This document shows, piece by piece, positions 3,775-61,989 of a stretch of DNA of 64,000 nucleotides. Under the pieces are notes generated by a model. The model was given only the letters and a program-made list of their open reading frames with translations. It did not search any database and had not been told where the DNA came from. Source of the stretch: Candidatus Babeliales bacterium (lineage in GTDB: Bacteria > Babelota > Babeliae > Babelales > JANWKD01). The position numbers and the translations under genes were made by a program. Location of the stretch: the NCBI GenBank assembly GCA_963701665.1, contig OY969622.1, positions 992,001-1,056,000 on the forward strand. The letters run 5' to 3'. The first letter of the stretch is position 1, and the number at the start of each line of letters is the position of its first letter.

Positions 3775-3802
3775 ACACTCTCCTCTTCTTGATTCTTTTT
3801 TT

Positions 3803-3989: not shown

Positions 3990-4059
3990 CCTTTTTTAAA
4001 GTTCTTTGAAAAAAAGCATACAAGAATGATTGATCAACGTGCAATTACTTTAACAAATG

Positions 4060-20364: not shown

Positions 20365-20652
20365 AAAACCTTGCCAGATACTATAGGAATAATTATACTA
20401 CTCAACAGTTGGATAAAATAATTGTGCTTCATAAGGTAACAAATCATGATAAAAAGTAAAAAAATTGTAGCTTTTTTTCAATTTTTGAAGAAACTCGTTC
20501 CAGTACTTTTAATTTTAATATCACGACGCATACCACCTTGGGATTAAATACTAATTAGTTCAAAGACTAGCAAATAAAAAATATTGCCACAAACAAGAAT
20601 TAATTAGGTTTATCGGCTCGTTTATATAAGCTAATACAGCGTATTAGCTTTC

Positions 20653-43142: not shown

Positions 43143-44531
43143 ATGCAGCTTCAAACTCTTCTTAATTCCAAAAACACCGATACACCATTAGCTTTAACAT
43201 TTTTATTCCGCGCCACCTTAGTTTTCAGCTTGTGGTGTAGTGCAACATACTGCATGGAAGACCCGCTTAATGTAAAACAGAAATTACCAACAGGTTCTAA
43301 TAAAAATTCTGGTATCAAAAAAGAACTTATAGGTCTAATACAAAGTTTAAAACAGGAACAAAATGGCCTTATAGGCTCAGCTCAATTTGGTGTTGAAAGG
43401 GAAGAAGATCAAGAACCTTTAAGAAGTGAATTGGTTGAAGAACTCATTAATGAAAGCCCTCATCGAATAAAAAAACTTATTAGTGATATCAATAAAAGAC
43501 AAAATCCTGACGATTTATTTCAGAAAGCTCCTTATATGAGCAATATACATGTTTTAGTCGGTTCTCCAGGAACTGGTAAAAGCAGTCTAGCAAAGGCTAT
43601 TGCAAAAAAATGTTCTATACCTTACCTTTTTGTCGCGATTCAATTGTTATCAAATCAATATCAGCATTCTGGCTCAAGCAATCTTGCAAGTATTCTTGGC
43701 CCCTTATCAAGGAGTAAAAAGCCCGAGGTAATTATACTGGATGAGCTACAGACAATTGTCAAAAAAAGAGGTAAAGAAGATTACGATATGGAAGGCGCTC
43801 AATCATTGTGGAAATTCCTTGATACTTTTAAAAACAAAAAAAATTTATTAATCATCGCCACTGCAAATGATCTTGATATTTTACCTGATCAAGTCCGTAG
43901 TCGCATCAAAGTAGGAATACACGACATAAGTCTTCCCGATCAATCTAAAAGAGAAAAAATTATTTCTTATTATTTACATCTTTATTCGCCTTCCTTGCAA
44001 GCTGTTCCCTCACCATCTGAAATTCAGTTTTTAGGATATAAAACCAAAAAATTCACACCGCGTGACTTAGAAACCATGATACGAGCCGCATTATCCAATG
44101 CTCACGACCGTTCAGGCGATGAAATTTTAGTTCTTGATAAAAAAGACTTTGATGCCGCTATTGCACTGGTAACAAAAGATGATGAAAGATTTTCAATCTC
44201 TAAAAGAACTTACAAAATGATTAAGCCACATATAGGAACTACTATTCAAATTATGGGCCCACTAACCATACAAATAATAGTCAATAGTTTTATGCAATAT
44301 TGCGGCATGAATCAACAAGTCCTGTTTCATAACGAAAGCATAGGGTTGCAAAGAGAGGGATTAGACTTACAAAAGAAAAGCTTTGCACAACAAGAGAGAT
44401 TCCACAATGAAAACAAAAATCTCACCTTGGAACATTTCAGAACACAGCTCATATGTCAAATTGTAGGCAATATACCTGGAGCTATTTATCATTGGTATTA
44501 TGGTAGTTCCACTCAACCAAAACCCCAATAA
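43143..44531 (+). CDS. AAA+ ATPase with signal-peptide-like N-terminus and C-terminal hydrophobic/coiled-coil tail; first gene of toxin-like locus 2
   Basis: Signal ending TYC-MED; GSPGTGKS, IILDELQ, ATAND, VRSRI, FTPRDL. Confidence 0.85.
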   Translation: MQLQTLLNSKNTDTPLALTFLFRATLVFSLWCSATYCMEDPLNVKQKLPTGSNKNSGIKKELIGLIQSLKQEQNGLIGSAQFGVEREEDQEPLRSELVEELINESPHRIKKLISDINKRQNPDDLFQKAPYMSNIHVLVGSPGTGKSSLAKAIAKKCSIPYLFVAIQLLSNQYQHSGSSNLASILGPLSRSKKPEVIILDELQTIVKKRGKEDYDMEGAQSLWKFLDTFKNKKNLLIIATANDLDILPDQVRSRIKVGIHDISLPDQSKREKIISYYLHLYSPSLQAVPSPSEIQFLGYKTKKFTPRDLETMIRAALSNAHDRSGDEILVLDKKDFDAAIALVTKDDERFSISKRTYKMIKPHIGTTIQIMGPLTIQIIVNSFMQYCGMNQQVLFHNESIGLQREGLDLQKKSFAQQERFHNENKNLTLEHFRTQLICQIVGNIPGAIYHWYYGSSTQPKPQ

Positions 44532-47500: not shown

Positions 47501-47708
47501 CGAACAATTTTTATCAAAATTTTTGACTGATATTGATATTGCCGAAAGTTGGGAACGACTTATAAATGGTAATTTTGTACAATCAGATTTGATTTTGTTA
47601 CAGCACGAATTAACCGAATCACTCCTGATGCAAGGAACAAAATTAAATTATGGTTCTGCTCATTATAAAATCGTAAATAAAATATTTAATTGGAATGCTA
47701 CCTTGTAA
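44544..47708 (+). CDS. Large exported protein with putative C-terminal toxin domain
   Basis: Signal ending STA-MDN; Gly/Ala-rich hydrophobic stretch then tip Y..R..DI.KIA.N.G.S..I.KIK.H.F...H...F..D..IA.SW.RL..G...D..LL.HE..E...Y..AH...NW, a pattern I recall from Rhs/MuF-type toxin C-termini. Confidence 0.65.
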   Translation: MNTYFMKTFKLYSIFAIFAYLTSTAMDNKIVIHGPTYDTDNEQRKFITPFQRNTAANFIPPERDIIAIPTSSKINTALSAIQCIASLEQAHLEQQFNTCVDILSQANLSESISAILSLGDLQFQRCNILDESSVEYQYYLKTTINDLNYILYDKTGSLQLTSIPSQQYDSAKVITDDFLKPLRPDDYKEIVEKLALLNRPGFAEVHQELTQGGIRPYFRALGRGISACFSYQESSDRLRKLINGNDVRKDLIKIKEYGEQFKFLQAKAIVEKYDNAQSSSDKKIADIAQQLYLEYIDKTYDLLIERLHLTPSQELKQELRDLIPYIVEKPAKAAELFYEKLEQYKNNEKQYGLLQQLINKVGLPKFYSYDRTCLNAIEIPTTIRDSNHIKEQQTLFSLATCPTHDKEALALGMRYVVRSCQTESSLYTHYAKALLHSVQSKDPDTKLLKCTDFTQTFDVKAKQDMIRRMIPAICNITNEINQLKQQPGSEERIKQLQSLRTTLHDAFQALDDTASKRISFNKVISEAIRELNVLNRSEMILTKSQEDLRALLQSVDLLYTGKTETHNLQVLQKLQPQSSHAQPDLSKTYEQYLMRETLDNKDLWTEANDSLRNEVIKHYIASSQDEALQEIETIILNRDTNCTIAKNIFTVIQDSATIIATDFPLKEIGDYAHETITHPTAYLLNIAKDFAQLGHFLKSFVSDYAKNNIASLGASKKDAYEFSKKYNEAVHKFAEGWKNLSLEHKKEFVAKLIVDLAANKALGIGAKLISNIMGDCIISFVDTLPPSISGGGAVAITRDIALMPELVAEVAEVIQAGGAAVGSTSVAVGSTGIQGIVTLYETTPGKNSKSSKIIPQGSYELPIEKFKAYTTIVEDGNPKIIESTFSTEEALEILNNSSELKMLNSRIEELKKATQDIRFGISDERFKDVPKLYEKAMHQAEQLYERARKNNNDIQKIAYNIGISEKVIEKIKNHIFIEEHILGHGNEQFLSKFLTDIDIAESWERLINGNFVQSDLILLQHELTESLLMQGTKLNYGSAHYKIVNKIFNWNATL

Positions 47709-47719
47709 TTGGAGTTAAT

Positions 47720-48031
47720 ATGGGAAAAGGAATAGATATCATAAAATATAAAAGCTCAAATAATATTCATTATTACTATATAGCATTTGGTGATTTAATT
47801 CCTGTGTTTTATATAGCCATTAATCCCATTAAAAATACTGTTTCATTTTTTAAAGATAATGATTTTGCTCAAGAACCAATAGGGATCATTGATTTTAACA
47901 ATCCAGATCCTTTTAAATCGATACCAAAAATTCCTGATGTACACAAAAATTATATTTTAATGACAATTACTAGGGCGCGTTTAGCGATAAACAAAGGAGA
48001 ATTTCATGATTATATCGGCTTTTCAAGTTAA
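47720..48031 (+). CDS. Small protein, candidate cognate immunity protein
   Basis: GGAG RBS, ATG 11 nt after the toxin-like stop, 103 aa, no signal peptide, very AT-rich. Confidence 0.55.
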   Translation: MGKGIDIIKYKSSNNIHYYYIAFGDLIPVFYIAINPIKNTVSFFKDNDFAQEPIGIIDFNNPDPFKSIPKIPDVHKNYILMTITRARLAINKGEFHDYIGFSS

Positions 48032-48148
48032 GTGGACCTAATTCAATACTATTTTTTAAAGATAATTCATCCAATATATTCAAAATATTCTAATGAAGAA
48101 TACACATATCTTTTTGATATACCCATTATGATTACAAAAGAGTAAACA

Positions 48149-49090
48149 ATGAAAGCACCTAAAATAATTCAACCGACAGTTAGCATAGATTGTGACTGTT
48201 GGTGCACTTCGAAACTGGCCGTTGAAAACAATAAATTTTATTTCGGTACCTTCGGTGGTACACTCAATTTTGGAGATATTAAGACTAAAAATATTATTGA
48301 AACTCCTACTAAAGAACAAATCGAATCAGTCGCAGTATATAAAGATTATGTTTTCGCCGCTGGCGACACTTTTATAGGTATGTTTGACAAAGTAACAGGT
48401 AAACTATTATATGAATTTCCCCAAGGACATTTGGGATGTATTCATGGCTTGATTACGTACAAAAATACTTTAATATCTGGATCCGATGAAATTAAAATTT
48501 GGGATTTAGAAACTAAAAAATGCTTGGCAACCTTAGAATGCTCTAGAGAATTAGTACAATCTCTTATTATAAAAGATAACTTTCTGATTTCTGGTCATGA
48601 TAAAGGAGTCATTAGAATATGGAATCTTATTTCAAAAGAATTAGTTCAAATATTGCATGAACATAGTTGGAGTGTTAAATCTCTCGCCATAAATGGTAAT
48701 ACCATCATTTCAGCCACTGGCGATCAAACAATCAAAATATGGGACTTTCATTCTGGAAAATGCCTTAATACTTTAGTTGGCCATAATACACCGATTACAT
48801 CAATTGCTCTACATAAAAATTATCTCTTTTCAAGCTCAGAAGATGCATTACTAAAAATATGGGATTTAAAACAAGGACTGTGTTTAAATAGTTTGAAATT
48901 AGATGACCAAGTTCTTCAACTCGTTGCTGATCAATATTTTTTATATACTATTTCGGACTACTCCTTTTTCCATCAATGGAGGTTAGATGATTTGATTACT
49001 CATGAACCTCTCGAAGCATTAATTCCTAAGGATTATTATGTAGAAAAATCTAGATTAACACATATTTCCTATGTATATAAAGGTGATTAA
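48149..49090 (+). CDS. WD40-repeat beta-propeller protein
   Basis: Repeated GH...LISGS.D..IKIWD units (IKIWDLE, IRIWNL, IKIWDF, LKIWDL). Confidence 0.9.
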   Translation: MKAPKIIQPTVSIDCDCWCTSKLAVENNKFYFGTFGGTLNFGDIKTKNIIETPTKEQIESVAVYKDYVFAAGDTFIGMFDKVTGKLLYEFPQGHLGCIHGLITYKNTLISGSDEIKIWDLETKKCLATLECSRELVQSLIIKDNFLISGHDKGVIRIWNLISKELVQILHEHSWSVKSLAINGNTIISATGDQTIKIWDFHSGKCLNTLVGHNTPITSIALHKNYLFSSSEDALLKIWDLKQGLCLNSLKLDDQVLQLVADQYFLYTISDYSFFHQWRLDDLITHEPLEALIPKDYYVEKSRLTHISYVYKGD

Positions 49091-49092
49091 TT

Positions 49093-49515
49093 ATGGAAAC
49101 CCAACATTATGTTACTGAAACAATTAAACCTCATACTTATCATTGGACCATAACAATCACCGCACTTATATTCTTGATAAGCTTGTTATATTTTATTTTT
49201 CAATTTTTTCCAACCTATTATCATTTACGCTTAGTTTTTAAAACAGCCGAATATAATTTTACTCTTGGCAATTATACAGAAGCAATAAAAGGATATACCC
49301 TCATTTTAAAAAATTTTAACAGCTTTAAAATGGCAAAAATAAAAAAGGTACAAGGATACTTTCCATTAGGCAAAAAACAAAAAGCGCTAAAATTACTATC
49401 TAATATGGAACTAACTCATAATGATTTAGAGTTATTAAAAAAATATATACCATTTGATTGTCAACATCATTTTCAACCAAAAACGAACATCATAGGATAT
49501 AAAGTCATATGCTAG
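49093..49515 (+). CDS. Single-TM protein with TPR-like motif
   Basis: N-terminal TM; AEYNFTLGNYTEAIKGY. Confidence 0.6.
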   Translation: METQHYVTETIKPHTYHWTITITALIFLISLLYFIFQFFPTYYHLRLVFKTAEYNFTLGNYTEAIKGYTLILKNFNSFKMAKIKKVQGYFPLGKKQKALKLLSNMELTHNDLELLKKYIPFDCQHHFQPKTNIIGYKVIC

Positions 49516-50036
49516 CACTATTAACATTTCCAGGAATAATCATTCATGAAATTGGGCATAGATTTTTCTGTGATATTCTGAATATAAAAGTTTATGAAGT
49601 CATGTATTTTAATCTTGCACGGGATATTAGTGGTCATGTTATACATGAAATAACCCAAAATGTTCATAAACAATTTCTTATTGCTATGGGTCCTCTTCTT
49701 ATTAATACTTTTTTTTGCATGTTATTCACTTTCCCCTATAGCTTGCCTAACTATTGGTTTGGAGAACAATTAGAATACTCACAATTTATAAATGCATTAT
49801 TTTTAATCATGTATTGGGTAGGATTTAGTGCTGGTGTCCATGCTTTTCCAAGCAATATAGACTTAAACAGCTTAGAAAAAACATCTAAAGAATATTATTC
49901 TGACTCTGTATTAACAAATTCTATCTTAGGAAGCTTACTTAATTTTTTTCGTATAATTGAACCAATAAAATTTTTATTGCAATTGATGTATGCTTTCTCA
50001 ATTAGTCAATTTTTACCATCATTAATATTGCCATAA
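49509..50036 (+). CDS. Membrane zinc metalloprotease-like protein (HExxH, M50-like)
   Basis: FPGIIIHEIGH, IAMGP, AFPS..D within hydrophobic segments. Confidence 0.7.
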   Translation: MLALLTFPGIIIHEIGHRFFCDILNIKVYEVMYFNLARDISGHVIHEITQNVHKQFLIAMGPLLINTFFCMLFTFPYSLPNYWFGEQLEYSQFINALFLIMYWVGFSAGVHAFPSNIDLNSLEKTSKEYYSDSVLTNSILGSLLNFFRIIEPIKFLLQLMYAFSISQFLPSLILP

Positions 50037-50127
50037 AAACAAAGCAAAAATATCGTCTCATATTTACTTTTACTAAAAAAAAGATACGATCTTAGCGATT
50101 CACAAACCATAACACAAAAGGATTACC

Positions 50128-50469
50128 ATGAAAGTCTTATTCAGCTTAAAACACACATTTCTTGTTTTAACATTTGTCTTTTTAGTACCTGCAAGCTGTT
50201 CTGCTAGGGTTCAATCACCTATTACTGTTTCTGAAAGCATCGGGTGGACTATAGCAGGCGCAGCATTGATAGCATCAGGACTTTGCATCGTTAACGAAAT
50301 ACCATTAACTTCTCTTGATGAAATTTCTTTGTCATTTCGCAATCAATTAAGTAAAGAAAATCTGAGAAAATTACACCTCGGACGTGCAATACAGGGATAT
50401 ACATTAGCTGGCGTTGGATCAATTATAAGCTTTCTTGGTGTATGTGCATTGATCACCGCCAAAAAATAG
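50128..50469 (+). CDS. Small membrane protein
   Basis: Signal peptide plus two hydrophobic helices; AAGGA RBS. Confidence 0.6.
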   Translation: MKVLFSLKHTFLVLTFVFLVPASCSARVQSPITVSESIGWTIAGAALIASGLCIVNEIPLTSLDEISLSFRNQLSKENLRKLHLGRAIQGYTLAGVGSIISFLGVCALITAKK

Positions 50470-50629
50470 ATAGTGCTATGTTCTACACAGAACAACTATT
50501 GATGCAGATTTCAACGCGAGTAGTGCCTCATCCAGCAGCTATGTTGACTATAAAAAATTAAAGGTCATGAAGAACAATATAACATTTTATACGGTTCTAA
50601 TCATGACCCTTAATGTACAACAATTAAAA

Positions 50630-51655
50630 TTACTTTAATTCACACTCTTTTACTTCAGCTTCACTAAACCTTTTAATGATGTAGGCAATTTCCTGCACAA
50701 CTTCTTCAGGCAATAAACCATAATCTTCTGCAATTTTCTCAACACGGTAACTGAGGTCCCAAAATGGGATATCCGCCCATTGCCTCTTCCATTGTCCCAT
50801 ACAAACATTTGCTTTCATCGCATCTAATTGATCACAACGATGTTTTACCCTGGTTGATGCATCACTATGTTTGTTGTTAAAGCACACATATTCAATGAAT
50901 GAATTTTCTTTTGTATGCAATCGATCTATTTCTTTTGTGACCGCTTTTTTAAAAACACTTTCAGAGGAATTTTTTTGTAAGATAAGTATTCTCTTTTTCA
51001 TAGACTCTAGTTCTTGCTCTAACTCCGATCGAGAACATTTTAATTCGTCATTACATAATTTTTCAACCTCCTCCAGCACATGATCAAGTCTGTTCTCAGC
51101 TTTCCCACACATATCTTTCACTGCCGCCCTATAAAAATCTTCAGAATTTGCTTCGTGGCTTAAAATTCTCCGATGAACATCATCAGTATTATTTTCTACA
51201 TAAGGGTGCACAGCACAATATAAAAAAAAATTCAAACGGGAACAATGATCATCTTGCGATAGCTTAGATGGTGAACCTTCTTTTAAAAAATTTATTCTAG
51301 GCGTACATGCTTTTCCAACTTTTGAGTCTTCATCGTAGAGTGTATCAAAACTACATTCTTCAACATCGTGTTTTCTTAACATTTCTTTAGCCATATGTTC
51401 TTTAGCAATAAGTGATAAAGGACGTACCGGACGCACCTTTCTTAAAGATGATTGGTTTTCTGTTTGGCTAGATTTCTCGAAATTTTCTTGTGTTTCACGA
51501 TTAGCAGATTTTTCTTCTTGTACCTGTTGCACGCCTTCAGTTTTTTCATAAGCTCTCTGCGCTGCCTTGAGCCATTTATCTGCATCATCCTGCATGGCAT
51601 TCAGCGATGTAACAAAAATAATAGTCGGCAGTATAATTTTATACATGCGTTGCAT
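50630..51655 (-). CDS. Array gene 7: shared leader fused to an unrelated non-ankyrin body
   Basis: LNA-MQDDADKWLKAAQRAYEKTEGVQQV leader, then no ankyrin motifs; start placed after the SD-like junction motif. Confidence 0.7.
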   Translation of the reverse strand: MQRMYKIILPTIIFVTSLNAMQDDADKWLKAAQRAYEKTEGVQQVQEEKSANRETQENFEKSSQTENQSSLRKVRPVRPLSLIAKEHMAKEMLRKHDVEECSFDTLYDEDSKVGKACTPRINFLKEGSPSKLSQDDHCSRLNFFLYCAVHPYVENNTDDVHRRILSHEANSEDFYRAAVKDMCGKAENRLDHVLEEVEKLCNDELKCSRSELEQELESMKKRILILQKNSSESVFKKAVTKEIDRLHTKENSFIEYVCFNNKHSDASTRVKHRCDQLDAMKANVCMGQWKRQWADIPFWDLSYRVEKIAEDYGLLPEEVVQEIAYIIKRFSEAEVKECELK

Positions 51656-52706
51656 GCTCATCCCCATTTTTTTGAAATTGTTTGAGTCGATTGTTGCGTT
51701 CTTCTTCAATTAGATAATAAATCGATTTACATGGGCCATCATGCATTTTACATTCTCGAAGATAATCCTGGGCAGTTTTGCCCTCTCTATTTTTAGTATC
51801 AAGATTTATTCCTGCTTTTAATAATGCTTGAGCCGTTCTTATCAAATTGTCACTCGAAGTAAAAAAGATAGGCGCTGGATTGGAAGCCTGCGTTGATAAA
51901 ACGTGAAGTGCTGTTTCATCACTATCATCTACAGAATTGATAGAGATATTTTGTTGTATATAGTACTCTACAAGATCAGATGAACATGAACCCCATGAGG
52001 GTCCGCCTATTGGACTCTTGATTGCGCGATGTAATAAAGTTTCATAACCATTGCATTTGCAATTAACTCTTGCACCGTGCTTAACTAACAGCTCGGCTAT
52101 TTCTCTATTTTCAGCCCAGCATAGTGAAAACATACCAGGAGTAGCTTTATTCGGGTTAGCTTTTTGTTCAAGCAAAAGTTTTAAGAGCGAAAAATCATTC
52201 GCTGCTATGGGTGCAACAAGTGCTCTCGCACGATATTCTTTTGATTTTGCGTTGGGATCGGCACCTGCACACACCCACCCACTTATTTTACAACGAGTCT
52301 TAGGATATTCTTCAAAATTACGATTATCTGTGTTATCACCTAATTGGTTATTTTTTTGTTCTTGAGATAACGAAACTGCTCTTCGAAAGTATCTTTTTCT
52401 TTTAAAATAATCACACGTTAATGGTTGACGTTGCTCAGGACATTCTGAAAACCATGTTTCATGATCATTTTCATCAAAATCGGCTTCATTATATTCTTCT
52501 TGTGTAGCATCTGTGCTTTCTCTTTGCTCAAATTTTTCAAAACTTGCTTGTGCATGGTTCTCTTCATTGACTTGCTGCACACCTTCAGTTTTTTCATACG
52601 CTCTTTGTGCTGCATTCAGCCATTCATCTGCATCATCTTGCATGGCATTTGATGATGATGCAACAAAAATCATCATCAGTATTATAATTTTATACGTGCA
52701 TTCCAT
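51639..52706 (-). CDS. Array gene 6: exported ankyrin-repeat protein (type A, mosaic)
   Basis: Leader, TWFSECP..CDYFK motif, ankyrin repeats, SPIGGPSWGSCS insert. Confidence 0.85.
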   Translation of the reverse strand: MECTYKIIILMMIFVASSSNAMQDDADEWLNAAQRAYEKTEGVQQVNEENHAQASFEKFEQRESTDATQEEYNEADFDENDHETWFSECPEQRQPLTCDYFKRKRYFRRAVSLSQEQKNNQLGDNTDNRNFEEYPKTRCKISGWVCAGADPNAKSKEYRARALVAPIAANDFSLLKLLLEQKANPNKATPGMFSLCWAENREIAELLVKHGARVNCKCNGYETLLHRAIKSPIGGPSWGSCSSDLVEYYIQQNISINSVDDSDETALHVLSTQASNPAPIFFTSSDNLIRTAQALLKAGINLDTKNREGKTAQDYLRECKMHDGPCKSIYYLIEEERNNRLKQFQKNGDEHATHV

Positions 52707-53772
52707 GATCACCACCATTTTTTTGAAATTGCTTGAGTCGATTATTACGTTCTTCTTCAATTAAATCGTAAAGTAATTTACAAGTTTCCTTGGATGATTC
52801 CTTAAAACTTTCATTCTTTTGACATTCTTGAAGCAGACCTTGGGCGCTCTTTTCCCTTATATCTTTGGCATCAATATCTATACCCGCTTTAAATAAGAGG
52901 CGTGCTTTTTTTATAAGCTCTTCATGAGAATGTGCATAACACCTCCCGGATAAAATATGGAGCGCTGTTTCACGAACAGTATTTATTGCATTAATAGGAA
53001 CCTTTTGCTGAATATAATACTCTAGAAGATCCGATCGATAATCTTGATCGGCTGATCTATGCAATAAAGTACCACCCAAACCGTCACAGCATATTTCCAA
53101 TTCTGCACCATGTTTAATTAACAATTCAGCTATCTCTTTCTTCTTTGTCCAATATAGGGGAGGCCTATTTCTACAAATTGTTTCATTTGGATTCAGTCTA
53201 TGCTCCAGTAAAATTTTTATAAGCCAATAATCATTTTGTTCGGCTGGCTCTAAAATTGTACTTAGAAAAGAATGTCTTTTGCCTTTCGTGTTGGGATCTG
53301 CACCCGCACATACCCACCCAGCAGTTTTACAGCGATTTGCAGAATATTCCCTTTCAAACGATACCTTTAACGCACAATCCTTATTTAAATCAGCAAGAAT
53401 ATCATTTTTTTGTCCTTGCGGTAACGAAACAGCTCTTTGGAAGTATCTTTTTCTTTTAAAATAATCACACGTTAATGGTTGACGTTGCTCAGGACATTCT
53501 GAAAACCACGTTGCAGGATCATTTTCATCAAAATCGGCTTCATCATATTCTTCTTGTGTAGCTTCAGGGCTTTCTGCTTGCTCGAGCTTCTCAAGCTTTT
53601 CTCGCGCTTCATGCTGAGCATCTTTTTCTTCATTTACTTGCTGCACACCTTCAGTTTTTTCATACGCTCTTTGCGCTGCCTTAAGCCATTCATCTGCATC
53701 ATCTTGCATGGCATTCAGTAATGATGCAAAAAAAATAAGCATTAGCATTATAGTTTTAGACATACATTCCAT
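52690..53772 (-). CDS. Array gene 5: exported ankyrin-repeat protein (type B)
   Basis: Leader, TLLHRSA, ETALHIL, KAGIDID. Confidence 0.85.
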   Translation of the reverse strand: MECMSKTIMLMLIFFASLLNAMQDDADEWLKAAQRAYEKTEGVQQVNEEKDAQHEAREKLEKLEQAESPEATQEEYDEADFDENDPATWFSECPEQRQPLTCDYFKRKRYFQRAVSLPQGQKNDILADLNKDCALKVSFEREYSANRCKTAGWVCAGADPNTKGKRHSFLSTILEPAEQNDYWLIKILLEHRLNPNETICRNRPPLYWTKKKEIAELLIKHGAELEICCDGLGGTLLHRSADQDYRSDLLEYYIQQKVPINAINTVRETALHILSGRCYAHSHEELIKKARLLFKAGIDIDAKDIREKSAQGLLQECQKNESFKESSKETCKLLYDLIEEERNNRLKQFQKNGGDHGMHV

Positions 53773-54832
53773 GATCACCACCATTTTTTTGCAACTGTTT
53801 GAGGCGATTGTTGCGTTCTTCTTCAATTCGATCATAAAGAAGTTTGCAATTATCATTATATTTTTTACATTCTCGAAGATAATCCTGGGCAGTTTTGCCC
53901 TCTCTATTTTTAGTATCAAGATTTATTCCTGCTTTTAATAATGCTTGAGCCGTTCTTATCAAATTGTCACTCGAAGTAAAGAAGATAGACGCTGGATTGG
54001 AAGCCTGCGTTGATAAAACGTGAAGTGCCGTATCATTATTATCATCTACAGAATTGATAGAGATATTTTGTTGTATATAATACTCTACAAGATCAGGTGA
54101 ACATGAACCCCACGAGGGTCCTCCTATTGGACTCTTGATCGCTCTATGCAATAAAGTTTTTCTCCCATCGCATCTGCAATTAACATTTGCACCATACCCG
54201 ACTAATAATTCGACCATTTCTTTATTTTCAGCCCAGCATAGTGGAGACATACCGGGGGTAGCTTTGTTCGGGTTAGCTTTTTGCACAATCAAAAGCTCTA
54301 AGAGACGAAAATCATTCGCCCCAACGGGTGCAACAAGTGCTCTCGCACGGTATTCTTTTGATTTTGAATTGGGGTCGGCACCCGTACACACCCACCCACT
54401 TATTTTACAACGAGTCTTAGGATATTCTTCAAAATTACGATTATCTGTGTTATCACCTAATTGGTTATTTTTTTGTTCTTGAGGCAACGAAACAGCCCTT
54501 TGGAAGTACCTTTTTCTTTTAAAATAATCACATGTTAATGGTTGACCTTGCTCCGGGCATTCCGAAAACCATGTCGAAGGGTCATTCTCATCAAAAGTAG
54601 CTTCATCATAGTATTCTTGTACTGCAGGACTTTCTGTTTGCTCAAATTTTTCAAAACTTGCTTGTGCTTCATGCTGAGTATCTTTTTCTTCTTTTACTTG
54701 CTGCACACCTTCAGTTTTTTCATAAGCTCTTTGTGCTGCATTGAGCCATTCATCTGCATCATCTTGCATAGCATTTAGTGATGACACAACAAAAATCATC
54801 ATCGGCATTATAGTTTTATACATGCATTCCAT
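53756..54832 (-). CDS. Array gene 4: exported ankyrin-repeat protein (type A)
   Basis: Leader, TLLHRAI, SPIGGPSWGSCS, DTALHVL. Confidence 0.85.
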   Translation of the reverse strand: MECMYKTIMPMMIFVVSSLNAMQDDADEWLNAAQRAYEKTEGVQQVKEEKDTQHEAQASFEKFEQTESPAVQEYYDEATFDENDPSTWFSECPEQGQPLTCDYFKRKRYFQRAVSLPQEQKNNQLGDNTDNRNFEEYPKTRCKISGWVCTGADPNSKSKEYRARALVAPVGANDFRLLELLIVQKANPNKATPGMSPLCWAENKEMVELLVGYGANVNCRCDGRKTLLHRAIKSPIGGPSWGSCSPDLVEYYIQQNISINSVDDNNDTALHVLSTQASNPASIFFTSSDNLIRTAQALLKAGINLDTKNREGKTAQDYLRECKKYNDNCKLLYDRIEEERNNRLKQLQKNGGDHGMYV

Positions 54833-55886
54833 GATCACCACCATTTTTTTGCAATTGTTTGATTCGATCGTTACGTTCTTCTTCAATTAAATCATAAACC
54901 AGGTTACAACGTTCAACCCATTTTTTACATTCTTGAAGCGAGTCTTGGGCAGTTTTGCCCTCTTTATCTTTAGCATCAATATCTATGCCTGCTTTAAGCA
55001 AATATTGAACTGTCTTCTTTAGATCAACATCTGAAATTAAATTTGAGGAATAATTAGCTGAAAGAGCTGAAACATGTAAGGCTGTTCTATTATTTCTATC
55101 TAGAGAATTAATAGGAATTCCCTGTTTAATATAAAAATTTATAAGACTGGGTTGGCGATCACTATTAATTGCTTCGTGTAATATAGTAGTCCCCCAAATA
55201 GTATCTTTAGATATTTTAGCGCCATATTTAATTAATAATTTTGCCATTCGTTTATTTTTAGCAAAATATGATGATGGAACAAATATTATTGTTTTATTAG
55301 GATTGGCCCCATGCTCAAGAACTATTTGAATTACTTCATAATCATCATGATCGATTGGCCTTAAAAGCACATTTCCCGCATCCACCAAATGAAACAAAGC
55401 TACACTAGTATTGGGATTACCTCCTGCACAAACCCAACCGGCAGTTTGGCATCGATTTATAGCATATTCATTATCGTCATCAGGGAATTTATAACGTTTT
55501 ATGAGATGGTGAAGTAAATCATTTTTCTTTCTTTTTGGTAATGAAACAGCCCTTTGCCAGTACCTTTTGCCTTTAAAATAATCGCAACTTAATTCCTTGC
55601 CTTGTGCAGGGCATTCTGAAAACCATGTTGAATAATCATTCTCATCAAAATTAGGTTCATCATATTCTTGTGTAGCTTCGGGGCTTTCTGTTTGCTCAAG
55701 CTTCTCAAAACTTTCTCGAGCTTCATGCCCAGCATCTTTTTCTTCTTTTACGTGCTGCACACCTTCAGTTTTTTCATATACCTTTTGTGCTGCCTTGAGC
55801 CATTCACCTGCATCATCATGCATAGCATTCAGCGATGATGCAACAAAAATAATAGTCGGCAGTATAATTTTATACATGCATTGCAT
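54816..55886 (-). CDS. Array gene 3: exported ankyrin-repeat protein (type B, divergent)
   Basis: Leader, LEHGANPN, TILHEAI, RTALHV. Confidence 0.85.
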   Translation of the reverse strand: MQCMYKIILPTIIFVASSLNAMHDDAGEWLKAAQKVYEKTEGVQHVKEEKDAGHEARESFEKLEQTESPEATQEYDEPNFDENDYSTWFSECPAQGKELSCDYFKGKRYWQRAVSLPKRKKNDLLHHLIKRYKFPDDDNEYAINRCQTAGWVCAGGNPNTSVALFHLVDAGNVLLRPIDHDDYEVIQIVLEHGANPNKTIIFVPSSYFAKNKRMAKLLIKYGAKISKDTIWGTTILHEAINSDRQPSLINFYIKQGIPINSLDRNNRTALHVSALSANYSSNLISDVDLKKTVQYLLKAGIDIDAKDKEGKTAQDSLQECKKWVERCNLVYDLIEEERNDRIKQLQKNGGDHGMHV

Positions 55887-56937
55887 GATCACCACCATTT
55901 TTTTGAAATTGTTTAAGCCGATTATTACGTGCTTCTTCAATCAAATCATAAATCGATTTACATGGGCCATCATGCATTTTACATTCTCGAAGATAATCCT
56001 GGGCAGTTTTGCCCTCTCTATTTTTAGTATCAAGATTTATTCCTGCTTTTAATAATGCCCGTGCCGTTCTTATATAATCTTCATTCGAAGCATATAGGCC
56101 AGATACGTGGTTAGACACTTGCGATGCCACAACGTGAAGTGCTGTTTCATCACTATCATCTACAGAATTGATAGAGATATTTTGTTGTATATAATACTCT
56201 ACAAGATCAGATGAACATGAACCCCATGAGGGTCCTCCTATTGGACTCTTGATCGCTCTATGCAATAAAGTTTTTCTCCCATCGCATCTGCAATTAACAG
56301 TTGCGCCGTGCTTAACTAATAATTCGGCTATTTCTCTATTTTCAGCCCAGCATAGTGAAAACATACCAGGAGTAGCTTTATTCGGGTTAGCTTTTTGTTC
56401 AAGCAAAAGTTTTAAGAGCGAAAAATCATTCGCTGCTATGGGTGCAATAAGCGCTCTCGTACCATATTCCTTCGATTTTGCATTGGGATTGGCACCTGCA
56501 CACACCCAACCGCTTATTTTACAACGAGCTTTAGGATATTCCTCCCGATGACGATTATGTATACTATTGCCTAACTGATGATTTTTTTGTTCTTGAGGTA
56601 ATGAAACAGCTCTTCGAAAGTATCTTTTTCTTTTAAAATAATCACACGTTAATGGCTGACCTTGTTCAGGACATTCTGAAAACCATGTTTCATGATCATT
56701 TTCATCAAAATCGGCTTCATTATATTCTTCTGCGGGCCTTTCTGTTTGCTCACGATTTTCAAACTTTTCTTGTGCTTCATGCTGAGTATCTTTTTCTTCT
56801 TTTACCTGCTGCATGCCTTCAGTCTTTTCATAAGCTCTTTGCGCTGCATTGAGCCATTCATCTGCATCATCTTGCATGGCATTCAGTGATACAACACAAA
56901 TCATCATCGGTATTATAATTTTATACATGCGTTCCAT
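55870..56937 (-). CDS. Array gene 2: exported ankyrin-repeat protein (type A)
   Basis: Leader, TLLHRAI, SPIGGPSWGSCS, ETALHV. Confidence 0.85.
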   Translation of the reverse strand: MERMYKIIIPMMICVVSLNAMQDDADEWLNAAQRAYEKTEGMQQVKEEKDTQHEAQEKFENREQTERPAEEYNEADFDENDHETWFSECPEQGQPLTCDYFKRKRYFRRAVSLPQEQKNHQLGNSIHNRHREEYPKARCKISGWVCAGANPNAKSKEYGTRALIAPIAANDFSLLKLLLEQKANPNKATPGMFSLCWAENREIAELLVKHGATVNCRCDGRKTLLHRAIKSPIGGPSWGSCSSDLVEYYIQQNISINSVDDSDETALHVVASQVSNHVSGLYASNEDYIRTARALLKAGINLDTKNREGKTAQDYLRECKMHDGPCKSIYDLIEEARNNRLKQFQKNGGDHAMHV

Positions 56938-57934
56938 GTTCACCACCATTTTTTTGCAGTTGTTTAAGCCGATTGTTACGTTCTTCTTCAATTAAATCAT
57001 AAAGCGCCCTGCAATTATCATTATTCTTCCTGCATTCTTGAAGCATACCTTGAGCAGTTTTTCCATCTTTATTAGCATCAATATCTATATCTATGCCTGC
57101 TTTAAATAAGAGACGTGCTTTTTTTATAACGTCTCCACGAGACTGCACCGTGCACCAATAAGATAACTCATGAAGCGCTGTTTCATTATAATGATTCAGA
57201 GAGTTTATAAAGACCTTTTGTTCGATATAATACTCTAAAAGATCAGGTAATCTTCCTTGCATTATTGCTCGATGCAATAATGTGTTACCACTTTTTGCAC
57301 CTTTCCAATTAACTTTTGCACCATGCGCAACTAATAACTCAGCTATCTCTTTGTTTTTAGCATAGGATAACGCAGGCTCACCTAGGATAATGTTTTTATT
57401 TGGTTTAGCTTTGTGCTCAAGTAAAATTTTTACAAGCCAAAAATCATCATTTTGAAGGGGATCTAACAGTGGCCTCCAGGGTCTTTTGAAACTAATGTTA
57501 GGATTAGCTCCTGCACACACCCAACCGCCTATTTTGCATCGCTGTGTAGAATATTCTGCACAACTATCATCTAACTCATTATTTTTTTGTTCTTGAGTCA
57601 AAGAAACAGCCCTTTGAAAGTACTTTTTTCTTTTAAAATAATCACACGTTAATGGTTGACCCTGTGCAGGACATTCTGTAAACCATGTTGCATGATCATT
57701 CTCATCGAAAGTAGGTTCATCATAGTCTTCTTGTGTAACTTCAGGGCTTTGCTCAAGCGTCTCAAACTTTTCTTGAGCTTCATGCCCAGCATCTTTTTCT
57801 TCTTTTACTTGCTGCACACCTTCAGTTTTTGCAAAAGCTTCATCAGCTTTTCTTAGCCATTCATCTTCATCATGCATGGCATTCAGTGATACGCTCAGCA
57901 TCATTGATACAAAAAATATATATCCCAATTTCAT
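56921..57934 (-). CDS. Array gene 1: exported ankyrin-repeat protein (type B)
   Basis: Own signal ending LNA-MHD; GNTLLHRAI, ETALHEL. Confidence 0.85.
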   Translation of the reverse strand: MKLGYIFFVSMMLSVSLNAMHDEDEWLRKADEAFAKTEGVQQVKEEKDAGHEAQEKFETLEQSPEVTQEDYDEPTFDENDHATWFTECPAQGQPLTCDYFKRKKYFQRAVSLTQEQKNNELDDSCAEYSTQRCKIGGWVCAGANPNISFKRPWRPLLDPLQNDDFWLVKILLEHKAKPNKNIILGEPALSYAKNKEIAELLVAHGAKVNWKGAKSGNTLLHRAIMQGRLPDLLEYYIEQKVFINSLNHYNETALHELSYWCTVQSRGDVIKKARLLFKAGIDIDIDANKDGKTAQGMLQECRKNNDNCRALYDLIEEERNNRLKQLQKNGGEHGTHV

Positions 57935-57951
57935 AAGAATATCTTTCTTTT

Positions 57952-59646
57952 TTAAATGTGAGATACGTAGTTTTGTGCCTTATTATGTTGTTCAATTTTT
58001 TCATGCACAATGCGATCAAGCGTATGCTCACTCATAACTTTATTTTCAGTTGCAAATGCAGCATGCTGCGCATGAATTGCTAATTTTGATATATCACGTC
58101 CTGAAAAACCTGCTGTCTTGTGTGCCATTTCTTGCAATTTTTCTTCTGAAAGATTTTCAATCTTTGCCTCTCTATCCATAACATATTTATTAAAATAGAG
58201 ATTAAGTAACTCTTTACGCCCTAGTGCATCAGGTAATCCAATAAATTCTTTTTGATCAATACGACTTATCGCTGCTGCATCTAATGCTTCTGGTCTATTC
58301 GTAGCCAAAACAAGCATGAACTTTTTGGTCTCGGTTCCGGTGTGCGTTAAGAAAGCGGTTAATAATTTTCTGGTTGATTCACTTACTTTATTTCTTGATT
58401 CTAAAAGAGCATCAGCTTCATCGATAAACAGCAAAAGTCCTTTTGGAGAATTGTCTGCCCATTTAAATAGCTTATTGAGCTCTTTAATTTTCTGATCTTC
58501 AGAAAACTGATCAAAATTTGCGCCTGAAGTAATTGCATAATCTAACCCTGATGAGCGCGCTAATTCTCGTGCCAATAATGTTTTACCAGTACCTGGAGGA
58601 CCATATACTAAAAGGTGACGATGAAATCCATCATTTTTTTGAACATGCTTTAAACCCTGTGCAAGTTCAAGAAGACGATTTTTTGTTGCCTCAGGCAAAA
58701 TAAGCTCGCTAAACGGTGCAACAGCAACAGGTTGTGGCTTGCCATAATTTATTGCAGTTTTGAATGGCGCAAGAAAACGCTGTTGTAATGTTAGGCGCGA
58801 TGTTTCAGTCACAAGAGTCGGCTTTCGCAAAAGCATTGCAACGTGATCACCAACAACTTGCGATCCTTTACGGGAAGCAAAATAGGCAAGGCTGCATCCA
58901 GCAAGGCCGAGGGTGGCGTAGGTAACTTTTTCAGGATCACTTATGAAGGTGTTAAATCCTTGTCCCCATAATTGCAATTTTTCCATCGAGTGTTTATGAA
59001 GCATAGCGGTTTTTGTAAGATCATGCTTTAAGCGTTCTGGCAATGTTTGTTGATCTAATTCTGCTTGGATTTTAGCTTCTTCGACGCGTGTTTTACGCTG
59101 TTCTCTTTCACGTTCTCTCATGCGTTGTGTTTTATAAGATTCTCCCTCTTGCATGAGTTTCCGCGCTAATGCATCCTGGCGTAGAAGAAAATCGTTTAAT
59201 TCATTACCAAAATTAAGATCAACATTTCTCCGTGTACCTGCTTTTGCTTTTATAGTATCTTTTATATATTTTTTATTTCTTTTTTGTGCTAATTGATGTT
59301 CTTCTCTCAGCAATTGCTTTCGTAATTTATGCTCTTCGGCTTGGCGCTCTTTTGCCAATTCATGTTCTTTTTGTGCTTTTGCCATTTCACTTGCCATGCC
59401 CCAACGCCCACGTACATCTTCATGATCTTTCACAAGCTTTAATTGTTCTGCTTTAGCAGCCTCAATGTCCCGTTGGAGTTTTAATTTTTCAACAGTTTGA
59501 TAAAGATCAATCTTTGAATTTGAAGGTGATTCCATATAAACAGCCGCTCGGCTCAGTGCTGTACTCAACCTTTTATCAGAATGCTGCATAGCACCGAGTG
59601 GCAATGAAAGTAAAAGTAATGGTATAAGATAGAAAGTATTCTTCAT
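57952..59646 (-). CDS. ATAD3-like AAA+ ATPase with signal peptide
   Basis: Coiled coil, GQGFNTFISDPEKV, TM, KPTLVTETSR, GPPGTGKT, SGLDYAI, LFKWA..S.KGLLLFIDEADA, FMLVLATNRPE, YFNKYV, GFSGRDI. Confidence 0.8.
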   Translation of the reverse strand: MKNTFYLIPLLLLSLPLGAMQHSDKRLSTALSRAAVYMESPSNSKIDLYQTVEKLKLQRDIEAAKAEQLKLVKDHEDVRGRWGMASEMAKAQKEHELAKERQAEEHKLRKQLLREEHQLAQKRNKKYIKDTIKAKAGTRRNVDLNFGNELNDFLLRQDALARKLMQEGESYKTQRMREREREQRKTRVEEAKIQAELDQQTLPERLKHDLTKTAMLHKHSMEKLQLWGQGFNTFISDPEKVTYATLGLAGCSLAYFASRKGSQVVGDHVAMLLRKPTLVTETSRLTLQQRFLAPFKTAINYGKPQPVAVAPFSELILPEATKNRLLELAQGLKHVQKNDGFHRHLLVYGPPGTGKTLLARELARSSGLDYAITSGANFDQFSEDQKIKELNKLFKWADNSPKGLLLFIDEADALLESRNKVSESTRKLLTAFLTHTGTETKKFMLVLATNRPEALDAAAISRIDQKEFIGLPDALGRKELLNLYFNKYVMDREAKIENLSEEKLQEMAHKTAGFSGRDISKLAIHAQHAAFATENKVMSEHTLDRIVHEKIEQHNKAQNYVSHI

Positions 59647-59664
59647 AAAAAAGTCCCTTTATAA

Positions 59665-60675
59665 TTAATTATTGTGTTCTTTGTGTTTGTTAATCTTTTT
59701 TGCTTCATGCAGACGCTCTTTAAAACGCTCTTTTCTCGTGTAACAGGATGGATGAGAATCAAAGAGTGAAGTTGTTGCTTTTTGCACTTCTTCACGAATC
59801 TCTTTTTTTTCTTTTTTGTTTGCTAAAAAAATGGATGGCGCCATTGCCTCTTCATATCTTTTTTGATCTCTTTTGAAATGATGAATGGCAGCTTGTAAAA
59901 TTTTAGGGTTATCGACAACAACGTTATCATCGGCACGTTGCTCAATATATCTTTGACATCCCATTAACAGCATCAGATTTCCGTACCCTTTTGCAACACC
60001 AAGCGGTAACGCAAGAAGATTTCTGATCCATCGTCTAGTTGGTTTAAAAGGTTTTTTGCAAAAATAATAAAGACCTTCGGTACATAGAGGGATAGCCAAC
60101 CCTAGCGCAAGTTTCTGCTTTGTATCGCAATAATAAACATGATTTGCTTCGTGTCTGTAGATAAATTTCTGTTCAGCTAACTCTTTGTTACGTTGTTTCT
60201 TGGTATAATAATTTTTTCTGGTCCTATTCTTTTCTAAGACTCCCTCCAATTTTGAGGTCACTTCTTTAGTATTTTGATCAAGGTAACTATGTACAAATAC
60301 TGTATTATCAGTGGAACTGGAACCACCTATTCCGGCATCACCTTTGGGCAAAAGAAATCGTTTAATTCTAACACCTTCAGGATTTGCAATATTCTGTATA
60401 GCAAGCTGCTCTCTAATAAACTGTTTGGCATCCTCAGTAGGTTCACCATACTTATCAATATCCCCGTGTAGTTCAGACCATAAGAGGGTTGACTTAGCTG
60501 CAGGAAATCCAGTTGGGGCAAATGCACAGCCATAATGAGCACAGGTTAACGCTGCAGTCCCGATAGTTGCTCCGACCGCTAAACTCCTTTTAAAGAGTGA
60601 TTTTTTCTCCATAGAAAAGGCGCAAGGCGTCATCAATACCATAGCTATAAATAAGCTCATTCCATAACTTTTCAT
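59665..60675 (-). CDS. Exported M48-like zinc metallopeptidase
   Basis: Signal ending AFS-MEK; HEANH, EQRADD, HPS...R. Confidence 0.65.
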   Translation of the reverse strand: MKSYGMSLFIAMVLMTPCAFSMEKKSLFKRSLAVGATIGTAALTCAHYGCAFAPTGFPAAKSTLLWSELHGDIDKYGEPTEDAKQFIREQLAIQNIANPEGVRIKRFLLPKGDAGIGGSSSTDNTVFVHSYLDQNTKEVTSKLEGVLEKNRTRKNYYTKKQRNKELAEQKFIYRHEANHVYYCDTKQKLALGLAIPLCTEGLYYFCKKPFKPTRRWIRNLLALPLGVAKGYGNLMLLMGCQRYIEQRADDNVVVDNPKILQAAIHHFKRDQKRYEEAMAPSIFLANKKEKKEIREEVQKATTSLFDSHPSCYTRKERFKERLHEAKKINKHKEHNN

Positions 60676-60924
60676 AAATCCCCTAATAGCCTATTGCTTT
60701 CTATTTGAAACAAAGGTATATTTTTAAAAATTGCTACAATAATACCTTATAGCAGGTTAATTTCTATAATACCATATAATTTCATTTTGACAAGTCCAGG
60801 GAGAATATAGAGACAATATATTTACTTTTGGCTATTTTTTTTATGGCAAAAGGCCTAAAAACACCTTGGAATAAGAAAAGAGCGATTATGGGGTAAAAAG
60901 GCTAAGATTGTCCAAGAACCTACT

Positions 60925-61322
60925 TAACGTGAATTCAATAAGAAAACTTGAAATTAAATGTGAATAATAGCCCAAAGACGTCTTCCCGAGGCCTGCGATC
61001 CAGATAATAAAATTAATTCATTAAGGAAAATTTTATTATTGGATTCCCACGCTAACGCTCGGAATGACGAATATGCGCCAGTATGTCATCCCGAGAAGCG
61101 AAGCGACGTGGGGATCCAAACTTTAATTAATTCCTTAAGGATTTATAAATTATCTGGGTTCTACTTTGCTAAAGCTTCGTAGAACAGGTTGCCAGCTCCT
61201 TCGAAGCTCGTAGAGCGAAGTAGGATCGCAATGACACCTTTACCGTCAATCAACTTTATTAAATTGCTATATTCTTCTTTTAAATAACAAAAATTATCGT
61301 TGCTTAAATCGAACTCACGTTA
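60925..61322. repeat. Tandem palindromic elements (core 60979-61236) inside terminal inverted repeats; MITE-like
   Basis: Ends TAACGTGAATTCAAT / ATCGAACTCACGTTA; core is the reverse complement of 17436-17682. Confidence 0.8.
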
Positions 61323-61323
61323 T

Positions 61324-61989
61324 TTAAGTACGGCACAGAACAACTGCAGTTATTGAGGCAGGTTTCAACGCTAATAATGTCTTTGCAGCAGCTTTCAGTG
61401 TTGAACCTGTCGTCATAAGATCATCCACCAGTAAAAGATGCTTCCCTTCAAACTGATGCCCATCATGATCACGTAATGTAAAGGCGTTGGTAACGTTTTC
61501 TTTACGTTCAGCGGTAGAAAGAACCGATTGAAAAACCGTATATTTTTTGCGTCGTAATAGTTCAATCATCGGTTTTTTGCTTTTCTTTGCTAGTTCTTTG
61601 GCCATCATCGTTGCTTGATTATAACCTCGATACGCAAAGCGACGCCAATGCAATGGGATAGGAATAATATAATCACACGGCACGTGTGAAACGTTCGTCA
61701 GTTCCCAAATCAATTGTCCCATATAATGACTTGCTAATGAATCGAACCTGCTTTTTGCCAAGATAAGTGATTTCAGTGGCTCTTCATACGCACTCGCTGC
61801 GTAGGCTGTCATTGCCACAGAAGGCGTTATGGCAATTTTAGCTGACACAATTGGCCTTATTAAGGTCCGGCATTGCGGGCACAAAATGGTAGGTTCATCG
61901 AGCCATTTCTTACAATGAACACAAAACGAGGGCGTAAAAAAATACCGCAATCCATGAAACGCGGTTTTGAAAAAATTGTTAAAGGGCAC
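61324..61989 (-). CDS. comF: ComF-family protein (zinc-finger + PRTase-like)
   Basis: CxxC...CxxC, IPIPLH..R...RGYNQA, LLVDDLMTTGSTL. Confidence 0.9.
   Translation of the reverse strand: MPFNNFFKTAFHGLRYFFTPSFCVHCKKWLDEPTILCPQCRTLIRPIVSAKIAITPSVAMTAYAASAYEEPLKSLILAKSRFDSLASHYMGQLIWELTNVSHVPCDYIIPIPLHWRRFAYRGYNQATMMAKELAKKSKKPMIELLRRKKYTVFQSVLSTAERKENVTNAFTLRDHDGHQFEGKHLLLVDDLMTTGSTLKAAAKTLLALKPASITAVVLCRT

Follow-up and report, generated by a model that had tools for sequence, protein, structure and literature searches.

Does a bacterial gene encode a genuine ATAD3, and if so, at which membrane does its product act and how is it related to the eukaryotic proteins of that name? The question is raised by a 64,000-nucleotide stretch of contig OY969622.1 (positions 992,001–1,056,000, forward strand) from a Candidatus Babeliales bacterium (a protist parasite of the phylum Dependentiae/TM6), here referred to as the window, which carries an ATAD3-like gene at 57952–59646 on its minus strand. 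Mitochondrial ATAD3 has its coiled coil in the intermembrane space and its ATPase in the matrix, and roles at contact sites have been reported for it. In the literature searched, it is treated as a eukaryotic mitochondrial protein whose molecular mechanism and origin are unsettled; the available part of one account describes it in animals, plants and protists and as absent from yeast, bacteria being unmentioned in that part (PMC3790746). The initial annotation of the window had proposed either a host-derived gene fitted with an effector leader, or a bacterial relative informative about the origin of ATAD3. As judged from its sequence, the bacterial protein is genuinely of the ATAD3 family and belongs to a large, paralogous, phylum-wide family of the Dependentiae.

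The gene product (564 amino acids (aa) plus stop codon, ATG start) was recognized in the list of open reading frames (ORFs) and by its Pfam ATAD3_N and AAA matches, and holds the single ATAD3_N match of the whole 1,337,192-bp genome (one gene copy, one contig). A Shine–Dalgarno-like AAGGGA (59654–59659, minus strand) lies 7 nt before the ATG, and no such site was seen on inspection before Met21. Thus, Met1 is taken as the start, and the leader belongs to the protein. Residues 3–21 are its most hydrophobic N-terminal 19-residue stretch, in agreement with the export-type leader noticed at the outset; residues 1–20 (59587–59646, minus strand) constitute a predicted Sec-type signal peptide, which ends in LGA and is followed by Met21-Gln. 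In all of the counts given here, signal peptides and leaders were judged by inspection, and cleavage and stop transfer are predicted.

Downstream of the leader, residues 46–235 (58942–59511, minus strand) form an N-terminal coiled-coil domain, for which AlphaFold2 predicts helices at 46–138 and 145–235, with predicted local distance difference test (pLDDT) values of about 60–88 in this block. The Pfam ATAD3_N (PF12037) match covers residues 62–279 (58810–59463, minus strand), corresponding to positions 40–264 of the 265 in the profile. MAFFT placed window residues about 26–46 (LSTALSRAAVYMES...) under the eukaryotic FD-x-x-ALER-x-AKA consensus, in a region where the pLDDT is <50 and which precedes the start of the Pfam match at profile position 40. 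A Gly/Ala/Thr-rich membrane segment (residues 241–259; 58870–58926, minus strand) is the best 19-residue candidate before Walker A and is followed by the basic SRKG...LLRK; it matches the equivalent segment of eukaryotic ATAD3 in composition and hydrophobicity, and is helical in the model. The KPTLVTETSR motif (residues 275–284; 58795–58824, minus strand), for which the family consensus is LGKPxLVRETSR, comes next. The AAA+ module with its lid extends over residues about 310–564 (57955–58719, minus strand; pLDDT >90), of which residues 345–470 match Pfam AAA (PF00004; E-value, 1.3e-25), and contains Walker A (GPPGTGKT, 349–356), Walker B (D409/E410), sensor-1 N450, Arg R462 and sensor-2 R517, which show little or no variation in the 58-sequence alignment. 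The complete model (m03f93d502b37; 58-sequence alignment; mean pLDDT 84.6) thus has two very long helices, a third one at 238–274 that contains the membrane segment, and a confident AAA fold. Its nearest solved folds are those of FtsH, p97 D1, Ycf2-FtsHi and an i-AAA protease, with only the AAA module covered. Sequence matches in the PDB are likewise restricted to this module (Cdc48/p97, VAT and AFG2; E-value about 5e-38), and no ATAD3 chain was found among the best 60.

Similarity to ATAD3 beyond the AAA core, as claimed by the initial annotation, was confirmed. The window protein scores 27.7 bits on ATAD3_N (E-value, 2.1e-6) against a curated gathering cut-off of 25, its same-clade relatives score 42–47 bits, and the match of this clade is the most complete one in the Dependentiae family. 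In a search of 5.8 billion proteins, all of the 120 best matches listed carry both PF12037 and PF00004. Among those listed, the named matches are without exception eukaryotic ATAD3 proteins (from alveolates, nematodes, arthropods, plants and green algae; 30–41% identity), some of which cover 93–95% of the window protein, while two unnamed matches are closer, namely P0002 (91% identity, 1.32-Mb contig), in which the leader is kept with conservative changes, and P0003 (47%). A group of unnamed high-coverage matches shares its cluster with a record labelled Perkinsus sp. and is therefore regarded as eukaryotic. When L012, a member of another branch of the family (group B), was used as a query, Dependentiae relatives were found first and then eukaryotic ATAD3, not other bacterial AAA proteins. 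In the 58-sequence alignment, P276, S283, W396, K355, D409, E410, N450 and R462 are invariant and common to eukaryotic and Dependentiae members, and the alignments of the two also share the Gly/Ala-rich membrane segment and the LGKPxLVRETSR motif. The window protein combines these features, the LFxWA Trp included, with an intact AAA module and an ATAD3_N match above the cut-off, and the motif strings originally quoted from it are all present in its translation, in the order in which they had been quoted. No NCBIfam model reached its cut-off with the window protein. In the ESM Atlas, the best clusters are eukaryotic ATAD3, and one AAA-only bacterial cluster scored 0.97 (commonest label Bdellovibrionota, with the phylum known for 6 members only).

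The family was found to be widespread in the phylum. Matches to PF12037 itself are present in 13 of the 261 phylum genomes, 6 of them above the cut-off, and in none of the 14 control genomes. A family-specific profile, built from the membrane-proximal region of 15 members and applied at E ≤ 1e-5, matched 103 of the 261 genomes and 75 of the 189 high-quality ones, and a single genome can have as many as 6 matches. Among GTDB families, the matched genomes make up 34/35 of f17, 11/12 of f18, 16/41 of f2 and 20/80 of f21. In the genome of the window, which holds 21 Pfam AAA matches, this profile matched the ATAD3-like protein alone among the 10 candidate stretches scored. A pattern search of the genome contigs derived from the single window protein gave 82 pattern matches, none of which was confirmed. 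A prokaryote-wide scan of 185,579 species with one motif variant from a 5-sequence alignment, which is not a full census of other phyla, returned 17 stretches, of which 9 were confirmed, all from TM6, Babeliales or vaguely labelled metagenome-assembled genomes. Some family records are labelled 'uncultured Pseudomonadota' or 'Epsilonproteobacteria bacterium'; two of those labelled 'Pseudomonadota' come from the same genomes as G133 and G138, which GTDB assigns to the phylum of the window.

The layout of the Dependentiae family consists of a leader, a variable coiled-coil domain, one Gly/Ala-rich membrane segment, the KPxLVRETSR motif and an AAA+ ATPase. On inspection, a hydrophobic leader starts 39 of the 42 distinct extracted family ORFs; of the other three, two are truncated where a contig or locus ends, and the remaining one is L005. 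In a mechanical count, leaders were present in 21 of the 162 eukaryote-type rows versus 63 of the 88 other rows, the latter still including about ten eukaryote-type rows missed by the pattern. Group-B relatives are named 'AAA family ATPase [Candidatus Dependentiae / Babeliales bacterium]' at NCBI, indicating that automatic annotation has reached the family. No account of a bacterial ATAD3 family was found in searches of titles and abstracts (supplements being outside their scope) that combined ATAD3 with the names Dependentiae, TM6 and Babeliales, with gene transfer and with prokaryotes. Among the papers listed for ATAD3 with the organism names, those in which ATAD3 occurs contain none of these names apart from the string 'TM6' and, by their titles, concern human disease or C. 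elegans. Searches for DUF3523, PF12037 and ATAD3_N led to a nematode protein only and to no bacterial family.

On balance, the window protein is probably anchored in the inner membrane of the parasite, with a periplasmic coiled coil and a cytoplasmic ATPase, and anciently related to eukaryotic ATAD3. The Sec leader would export the coiled-coil domain of ~215 residues into the periplasm, the central segment (241–259) would stop transfer and anchor the protein in the inner membrane, and the AAA+ module, catalytically intact by its residues, would stay in the cytoplasm and, as assumed by homology, form a ring. Such an envelope-spanning orientation would be that of both mitochondrial ATAD3 and FtsH. 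This topology is suggested by the residues flanking the segment, which are acidic or neutral before it and basic after it, and by the succession of model helices 46–138, 145–235 and 238–274 ahead of the AAA module. ATP hydrolysed on the inside may power an activity directed at periplasmic or outer-membrane partners or lipids. It may be speculated that this activity consists of lipid or protein traffic between the two membranes, a thought that derives from the reported contact-site roles of ATAD3 and from a Dependentiae isolate in which lipid synthesis is reported to be lacking. The available part of the report on that isolate describes this lack, as well as the isolate wrapping itself in host mitochondria (PMC6561590).

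Several observations weigh against this arrangement. The membrane segment is only moderately hydrophobic (summed value about +6 kcal/mol on a hydrophobicity scale, about equal to that of eukaryotic ATAD3), which makes passage through SecYEG conceivable. Seven leader-bearing tandem paralogs, with ankyrin matches in four of the five scanned, follow the gene in a variable island, as would be expected for a secreted factor that interacts with the host. With the two secretins of the genome, a Sec plus type II exit route exists. In an energy parasite that lives in the host cytoplasm, ATP may conceivably be available in the periplasm; given this way of life and the four ATP/ADP translocases of the genome, an exported ATPase would not be absurd.

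The membrane segment, the paralog array and the secretins also lend substance to the alternative that survives best, although it appears rather unlikely: a secreted or vesicle-delivered effector, which after Sec export would leave through the type II secretins or in outer-membrane vesicles, insert in host mitochondria, mimic or co-assemble with ATAD3, and remodel the organelle. Such an effector would be expected to have the N-terminal leader and the weakly hydrophobic membrane segment, and its route would suit a genome with two secretins in which no VirB4-type system was found. Two species of the genus differ in the block where the paralog array lies, and the clade of the window has the most complete ATAD3_N match, both of which would also fit an effector. 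According to the available part of Deeg et al. (2019), a Dependentiae isolate reorganises the host mitochondrion, 44% of its coding sequences have signal peptides, and outer-membrane vesicles were seen (PMC6561590). However, retention in the inner membrane is what a leader, an internal membrane segment and basic residues on the C-terminal side of this segment would together predict; a soluble effector would have no further membrane-spanning segment, and the mature protein keeps a conserved, moderately hydrophobic one with a basic flank. A resident machine accords better with the near-universal presence in some Dependentiae families (34/35 and 11/12) and with the conserved membrane-protein gene that accompanies group-B members in 12 of 24 loci. 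A mimic recently derived from a host would be close to a eukaryotic ATAD3, whereas the window protein is close to none of those sampled.

The leader, which had been described as that of an effector, fits the generic predicted signal peptide of the genome. Among 957 long ORFs, 524 have a strongly hydrophobic 10-residue stretch near the N-terminus, and a junction of a small residue, Met and a polar residue follows this stretch in 149 of the 524, versus 7 in control windows of the same proteins (rough count). The LGA-Met-Gln of the window protein is therefore an ordinary predicted export signal and not a special effector tag. In other genomes, many leaders of ATAD3-like proteins terminate in the same type of junction.

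To place the window protein relative to the eukaryotic ones, four trees were inferred under LG+C20 with posterior mean site frequencies. They contain no named Amoebozoa, Discoba, Metamonada, Rhizaria or fungi, and a single stramenopile enters the spacing count given below only. In all of the four trees the window protein lies in a clade of Dependentiae and metagenome sequences (12 rows; 96/84 in the 84-row tree), outside the eukaryotic ATAD3 clade and never within plants, animals or alveolates. The eukaryotes form one clade in the quick 79-row tree (99 in the Shimodaira–Hasegawa-like approximate likelihood ratio test, SH-aLRT), in which the window clade is nearest to them. In the careful 80-row tree, from which four long rows were excluded, the eukaryotes are supported at 100/100, and group B (35 rows) is their sister at 92/88. 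With the long rows included (careful 84-row tree), support for the eukaryotes is 71/82 (72% of bootstrap trees) and the backbone is a polytomy. In the quick 85-row tree, the family (78 rows) separates from 7 outgroup AAA domains at 99 SH-aLRT, the eukaryotes are at 99, and the window group is sister to them at 90. Thus, the sister group of the eukaryotes changes between trees. In approximately unbiased (AU) tests on the 80-row set, forcing the 49 Dependentiae and environmental rows into one clade cost 3.65 log-likelihood units and was not rejected (p = 0.29), whereas forcing them together with the 11 rows of the alveolate clade cost 11.9 units and was rejected (p = 0.026).

A loop character points in the same direction. 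A spacing of 38 residues between Walker A and the Trp, together with a GGD-x-x-P-L/M-G loop, is found in 42 of the 43 named eukaryotic proteins, the 43rd being unscorable. The spacing is 39 in the window protein, in 7/7 named TM6/Babeliales proteins and in 28 of 42 genome ORFs, a spacing of 38 being found in none of the 42, and the FtsH outgroup aligns at the 39-residue length; the loop of the window protein reads SGANFDQF. Since the spacing ranges from 33 to 43 in Dependentiae, the loop and spacing character carries moderate weight.

These results speak for an ancient relationship between the family and eukaryotic ATAD3 and against recent capture from one of the host groups sampled. That the window lineage captured ATAD3 from a protist host and then supplied it with a leader is very improbable. 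It would explain why the best named matches, among those listed, are protist (alveolate) and other eukaryotic ATAD3 proteins, and why the gene is patchy within the GTDB family of the window, being present in G000 (the genome of the window) and G111 and not found in G110, G108 or G109. However, the nesting within protist ATAD3 that the proposal of a host-derived gene called for is absent: the eukaryotes are monophyletic without the window clade (100/100), a clade of Dependentiae with alveolates is rejected, and the window protein groups with leader-bearing Dependentiae and metagenomic proteins, lacks the loop and spacing of the named eukaryotic proteins, and is only 30–41% identical to any eukaryotic protein among the matches listed. 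The presence of the family in 103 of 261 genomes also speaks against this proposal. Its counterpart, a bacterial relative informative about the origin of ATAD3, is supported.

Two divergent Dependentiae members, L073:970–3249 (plus strand, 760 aa) and L077:1549–2922 (minus strand, 458 aa), both have leaders and no Pfam ATAD3_N match at E ≤ 1e-3. Their loops are eukaryote-like (GGDV and GGNV), their best matches are eukaryotic, and they form long branches beside the eukaryotic clade (91/94, unstarred). They may stem from exchanges of their own or be the closest relatives that eukaryotic ATAD3 has among bacteria; by their loops, best matches and placement, more than one exchange is possible, which is a point in favour of a host-derived gene.

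As the monophyly of Dependentiae is not rejected, an ancient transfer in either direction is compatible with the data. It is conceivable, though improbable, that eukaryotic ATAD3 descends from a Dependentiae-type envelope ATPase, a stem eukaryote having taken the gene from an intracellular parasite and re-targeted the product to the mitochondrial inner membrane with its orientation kept. In all of the four trees the maximum-likelihood root falls among Dependentiae lineages, with the eukaryotes nested as one clade, as this descent would predict. Against it stand the weak backbone, the long-branch attraction to the outgroup that would mimic such a root, and the AU result on Dependentiae monophyly. 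Conversely, the ATAD3 of a stem or very early eukaryote may have been acquired by the ancestor of the Babeliales and put to use in the bacterial envelope.

The last alternative, that the protein is a generic bacterial AAA ATPase resembling ATAD3 by coiled-coil composition and the common AAA core, can draw on an ATAD3_N score just 2.7 bits over the cut-off of a profile that is largely coiled coil, on the missing NCBIfam assignment and on the restriction of solved-structure matches to the AAA module, but is scarcely credible in view of the 42–47 bits of the close relatives, the membrane segment, KPxLVRETSR motif and Trp396 common to all of the eukaryotic members, the ATAD3-type composition of the 120 best matches listed, and the greater distance of the other leader-bearing AAA proteins of the same genome (E-values of 1e-8 to 1e-11, with an FtsH match at least equal). 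The grouping with generic bacterial AAA proteins, devoid of ATAD3-specific similarity, that the initial annotation had named as its refutation was not observed, the 7 outgroup domains being excluded at 99 SH-aLRT.

Compared with eukaryotic ATAD3, the window protein has the same domain order (coiled coil, Gly/Ala-rich membrane segment, KPxLVRETSR, and an AAA+ module with the LFxWA Trp) and conserved catalytic residues; its predicted orientation across the energised membrane is also the same, coiled coil outside and ATPase inside. It differs in being bacterial, in having a predicted Sec-type leader where the eukaryotic N-terminus is leaderless and often Pro/Gly-rich, in lacking the GGD-x-x-P-L/M-G loop, in having one extra residue between Walker A and the Trp, and in its position outside the eukaryotic clade. 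With FtsH, the top structural match to the model (Foldseek E-value, 6.8e-18), it shares a classic-clade AAA module and, as predicted, the layout of a periplasmic domain and a cytoplasmic ATPase, and the two align without the gap that is specific to eukaryotes in the loop following Walker A. Unlike FtsH, it has no M41 protease domain, its periplasmic domain would be a coiled coil rather than small and globular, and only one Arg is present in its second region of homology, which is shorter; moreover, FtsH is encoded by a separate gene in the same genome. A short second region of homology is also a feature of meiotic-clade AAA proteins, and an outgroup nearer than FtsH may therefore exist. In the FtsH of this genome (G000:C1:814181–816883, minus strand; 897 aa from the first Met), a tandem pair of AAA modules precedes the HExxH protease domain, where one is usual.

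Another Dependentiae-specific expansion of AAA proteins with (atypical) signal peptides is the leader-bearing AAA-Ulp1 fusion family of Babela massiliensis, interpreted in the available part of Pagnier et al. (2015) as probably secreted into the host (PMC4378268). As described in that part, these proteins combine AAA with a permuted desumoylase-like peptidase, and no ATAD3_N, membrane segment or KPxLVRETSR is mentioned for them there (PMC4378268).

A bacterial family of the same architecture and predicted orientation makes the origin of ATAD3 a dated, testable question, and offers a simpler system for work on the structure, topology and ATPase activity of ATAD3-type proteins. It also points to an envelope-spanning ATPase, or alternatively to an effector aimed at mitochondria, in energy parasites whose phylum, from the available part of one report, appears not to make its own lipids and includes an isolate that surrounds itself with host mitochondria (PMC6561590). 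The partner gene found beside many family members of group B provides a second handle on function.

In 12 of the 24 loci examined outside the window, this partner gene immediately precedes the group-B gene in the same orientation. Its products have 330–720 aa, a leader and a conserved C-terminal region with a hydrophobic helix at its end, and no Pfam family was matched at E ≤ 0.01 by the five copies scanned. The copies are located at L015:1002–3158, L016:1180–3000, L017:1058–2557, L018:1833–3371, L019:1228–2616, L020:1660–3045, L021:2508–3497, L022:1933–3339, L067:265–1740, L072:176–1633, L074:494–1819 and 3719–4966, and L079:71–1666. The profile of the partner gave no match in the genome of the window.

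Immediately upstream of the ATAD3-like gene and co-directional with it, an ORF at 59665–60675 (minus strand; stop codon at 59665–59667) encodes a 336-aa protein with a leader, the HExxH sequence HEANH and two hydrophobic stretches. Its sub-threshold similarity to Peptidase_M48 (E-value, 0.042; 14.1 bits against a cut-off of 20.3) involves the C-terminal profile positions 124–184 of 186, and the protein looks like a divergent M48-type membrane metalloprotease. As a candidate for a divergent group-B partner it was rejected (hhalign probability 0.2%). With a gap of 18 nt between the two genes, this gene may be co-transcribed with the ATAD3-like gene. Downstream on the same strand are the seven tandem leader-bearing paralogs (50630–57934, minus strand), the first of which begins 17 nt past the stop of the ATAD3-like gene; of the five scanned, the one at 50630–51709 has no ankyrin match at E ≤ 1e-5. 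As called, the paralog ORFs overlap by about 70 nt through upstream TTG starts, and thus the later ATGs before the leader are probably the true starts. No minus-strand terminator-like site was found between the upstream gene, the ATAD3-like gene and the paralogs, which is weak evidence of their co-transcription.

Further upstream, pheT, lspA, pgpA and a phosphoribosyltransferase gene are found. In G110, a genome of the same genus (L083, G110:C6:550000–569900), this flank and the far flank (homologues of window 44559–50466) are both conserved, while the ~10.9-kb block between them (window 50466–61327), comprising the ATAD3-like gene, the 336-aa gene and the paralog array, is replaced by ~6.3 kb of different leader-bearing genes, including one for an 894-aa leader-bearing AAA protein. 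With three different queries, no member of the ATAD3-like family was found in G110 (95% complete) or in G108 and G109 of the same family. Given this location in a species-variable block of exported-protein genes, the window copy probably has an accessory, not a housekeeping, role that is connected with host interaction.

Other leader-bearing AAA ATPases, arranged as leader, AAA and C-terminal hydrophobic helices, are encoded in the window at 43143–44531 and 20635–21834 (both plus strand) and outside it at G000:C1:575504–577126 and 580265–581521. If the leader is cleaved, their ATPase domain would lie outside the cytoplasm. As specific relatives of the ATAD3-like protein, the leader-bearing AAA proteins of the genome were rejected at the E-values given above. 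Mitofilin (PF09731) was not found in the genome. Among the sequencing runs, no RNA run was listed, and the DNA shares, in soil and freshwater metagenomes, are at most 0.13. Tandem arrangements of the module also occur: P0121, P0122, P0124–P0126 and others in the representative library, all of them unnamed proteins of 1,200–2,100 aa, contain 4–6 tandem AAA stretches, each 30–34% identical to the window protein, and the match of P0121 (query residues 266–528) starts from the membrane-proximal motif.

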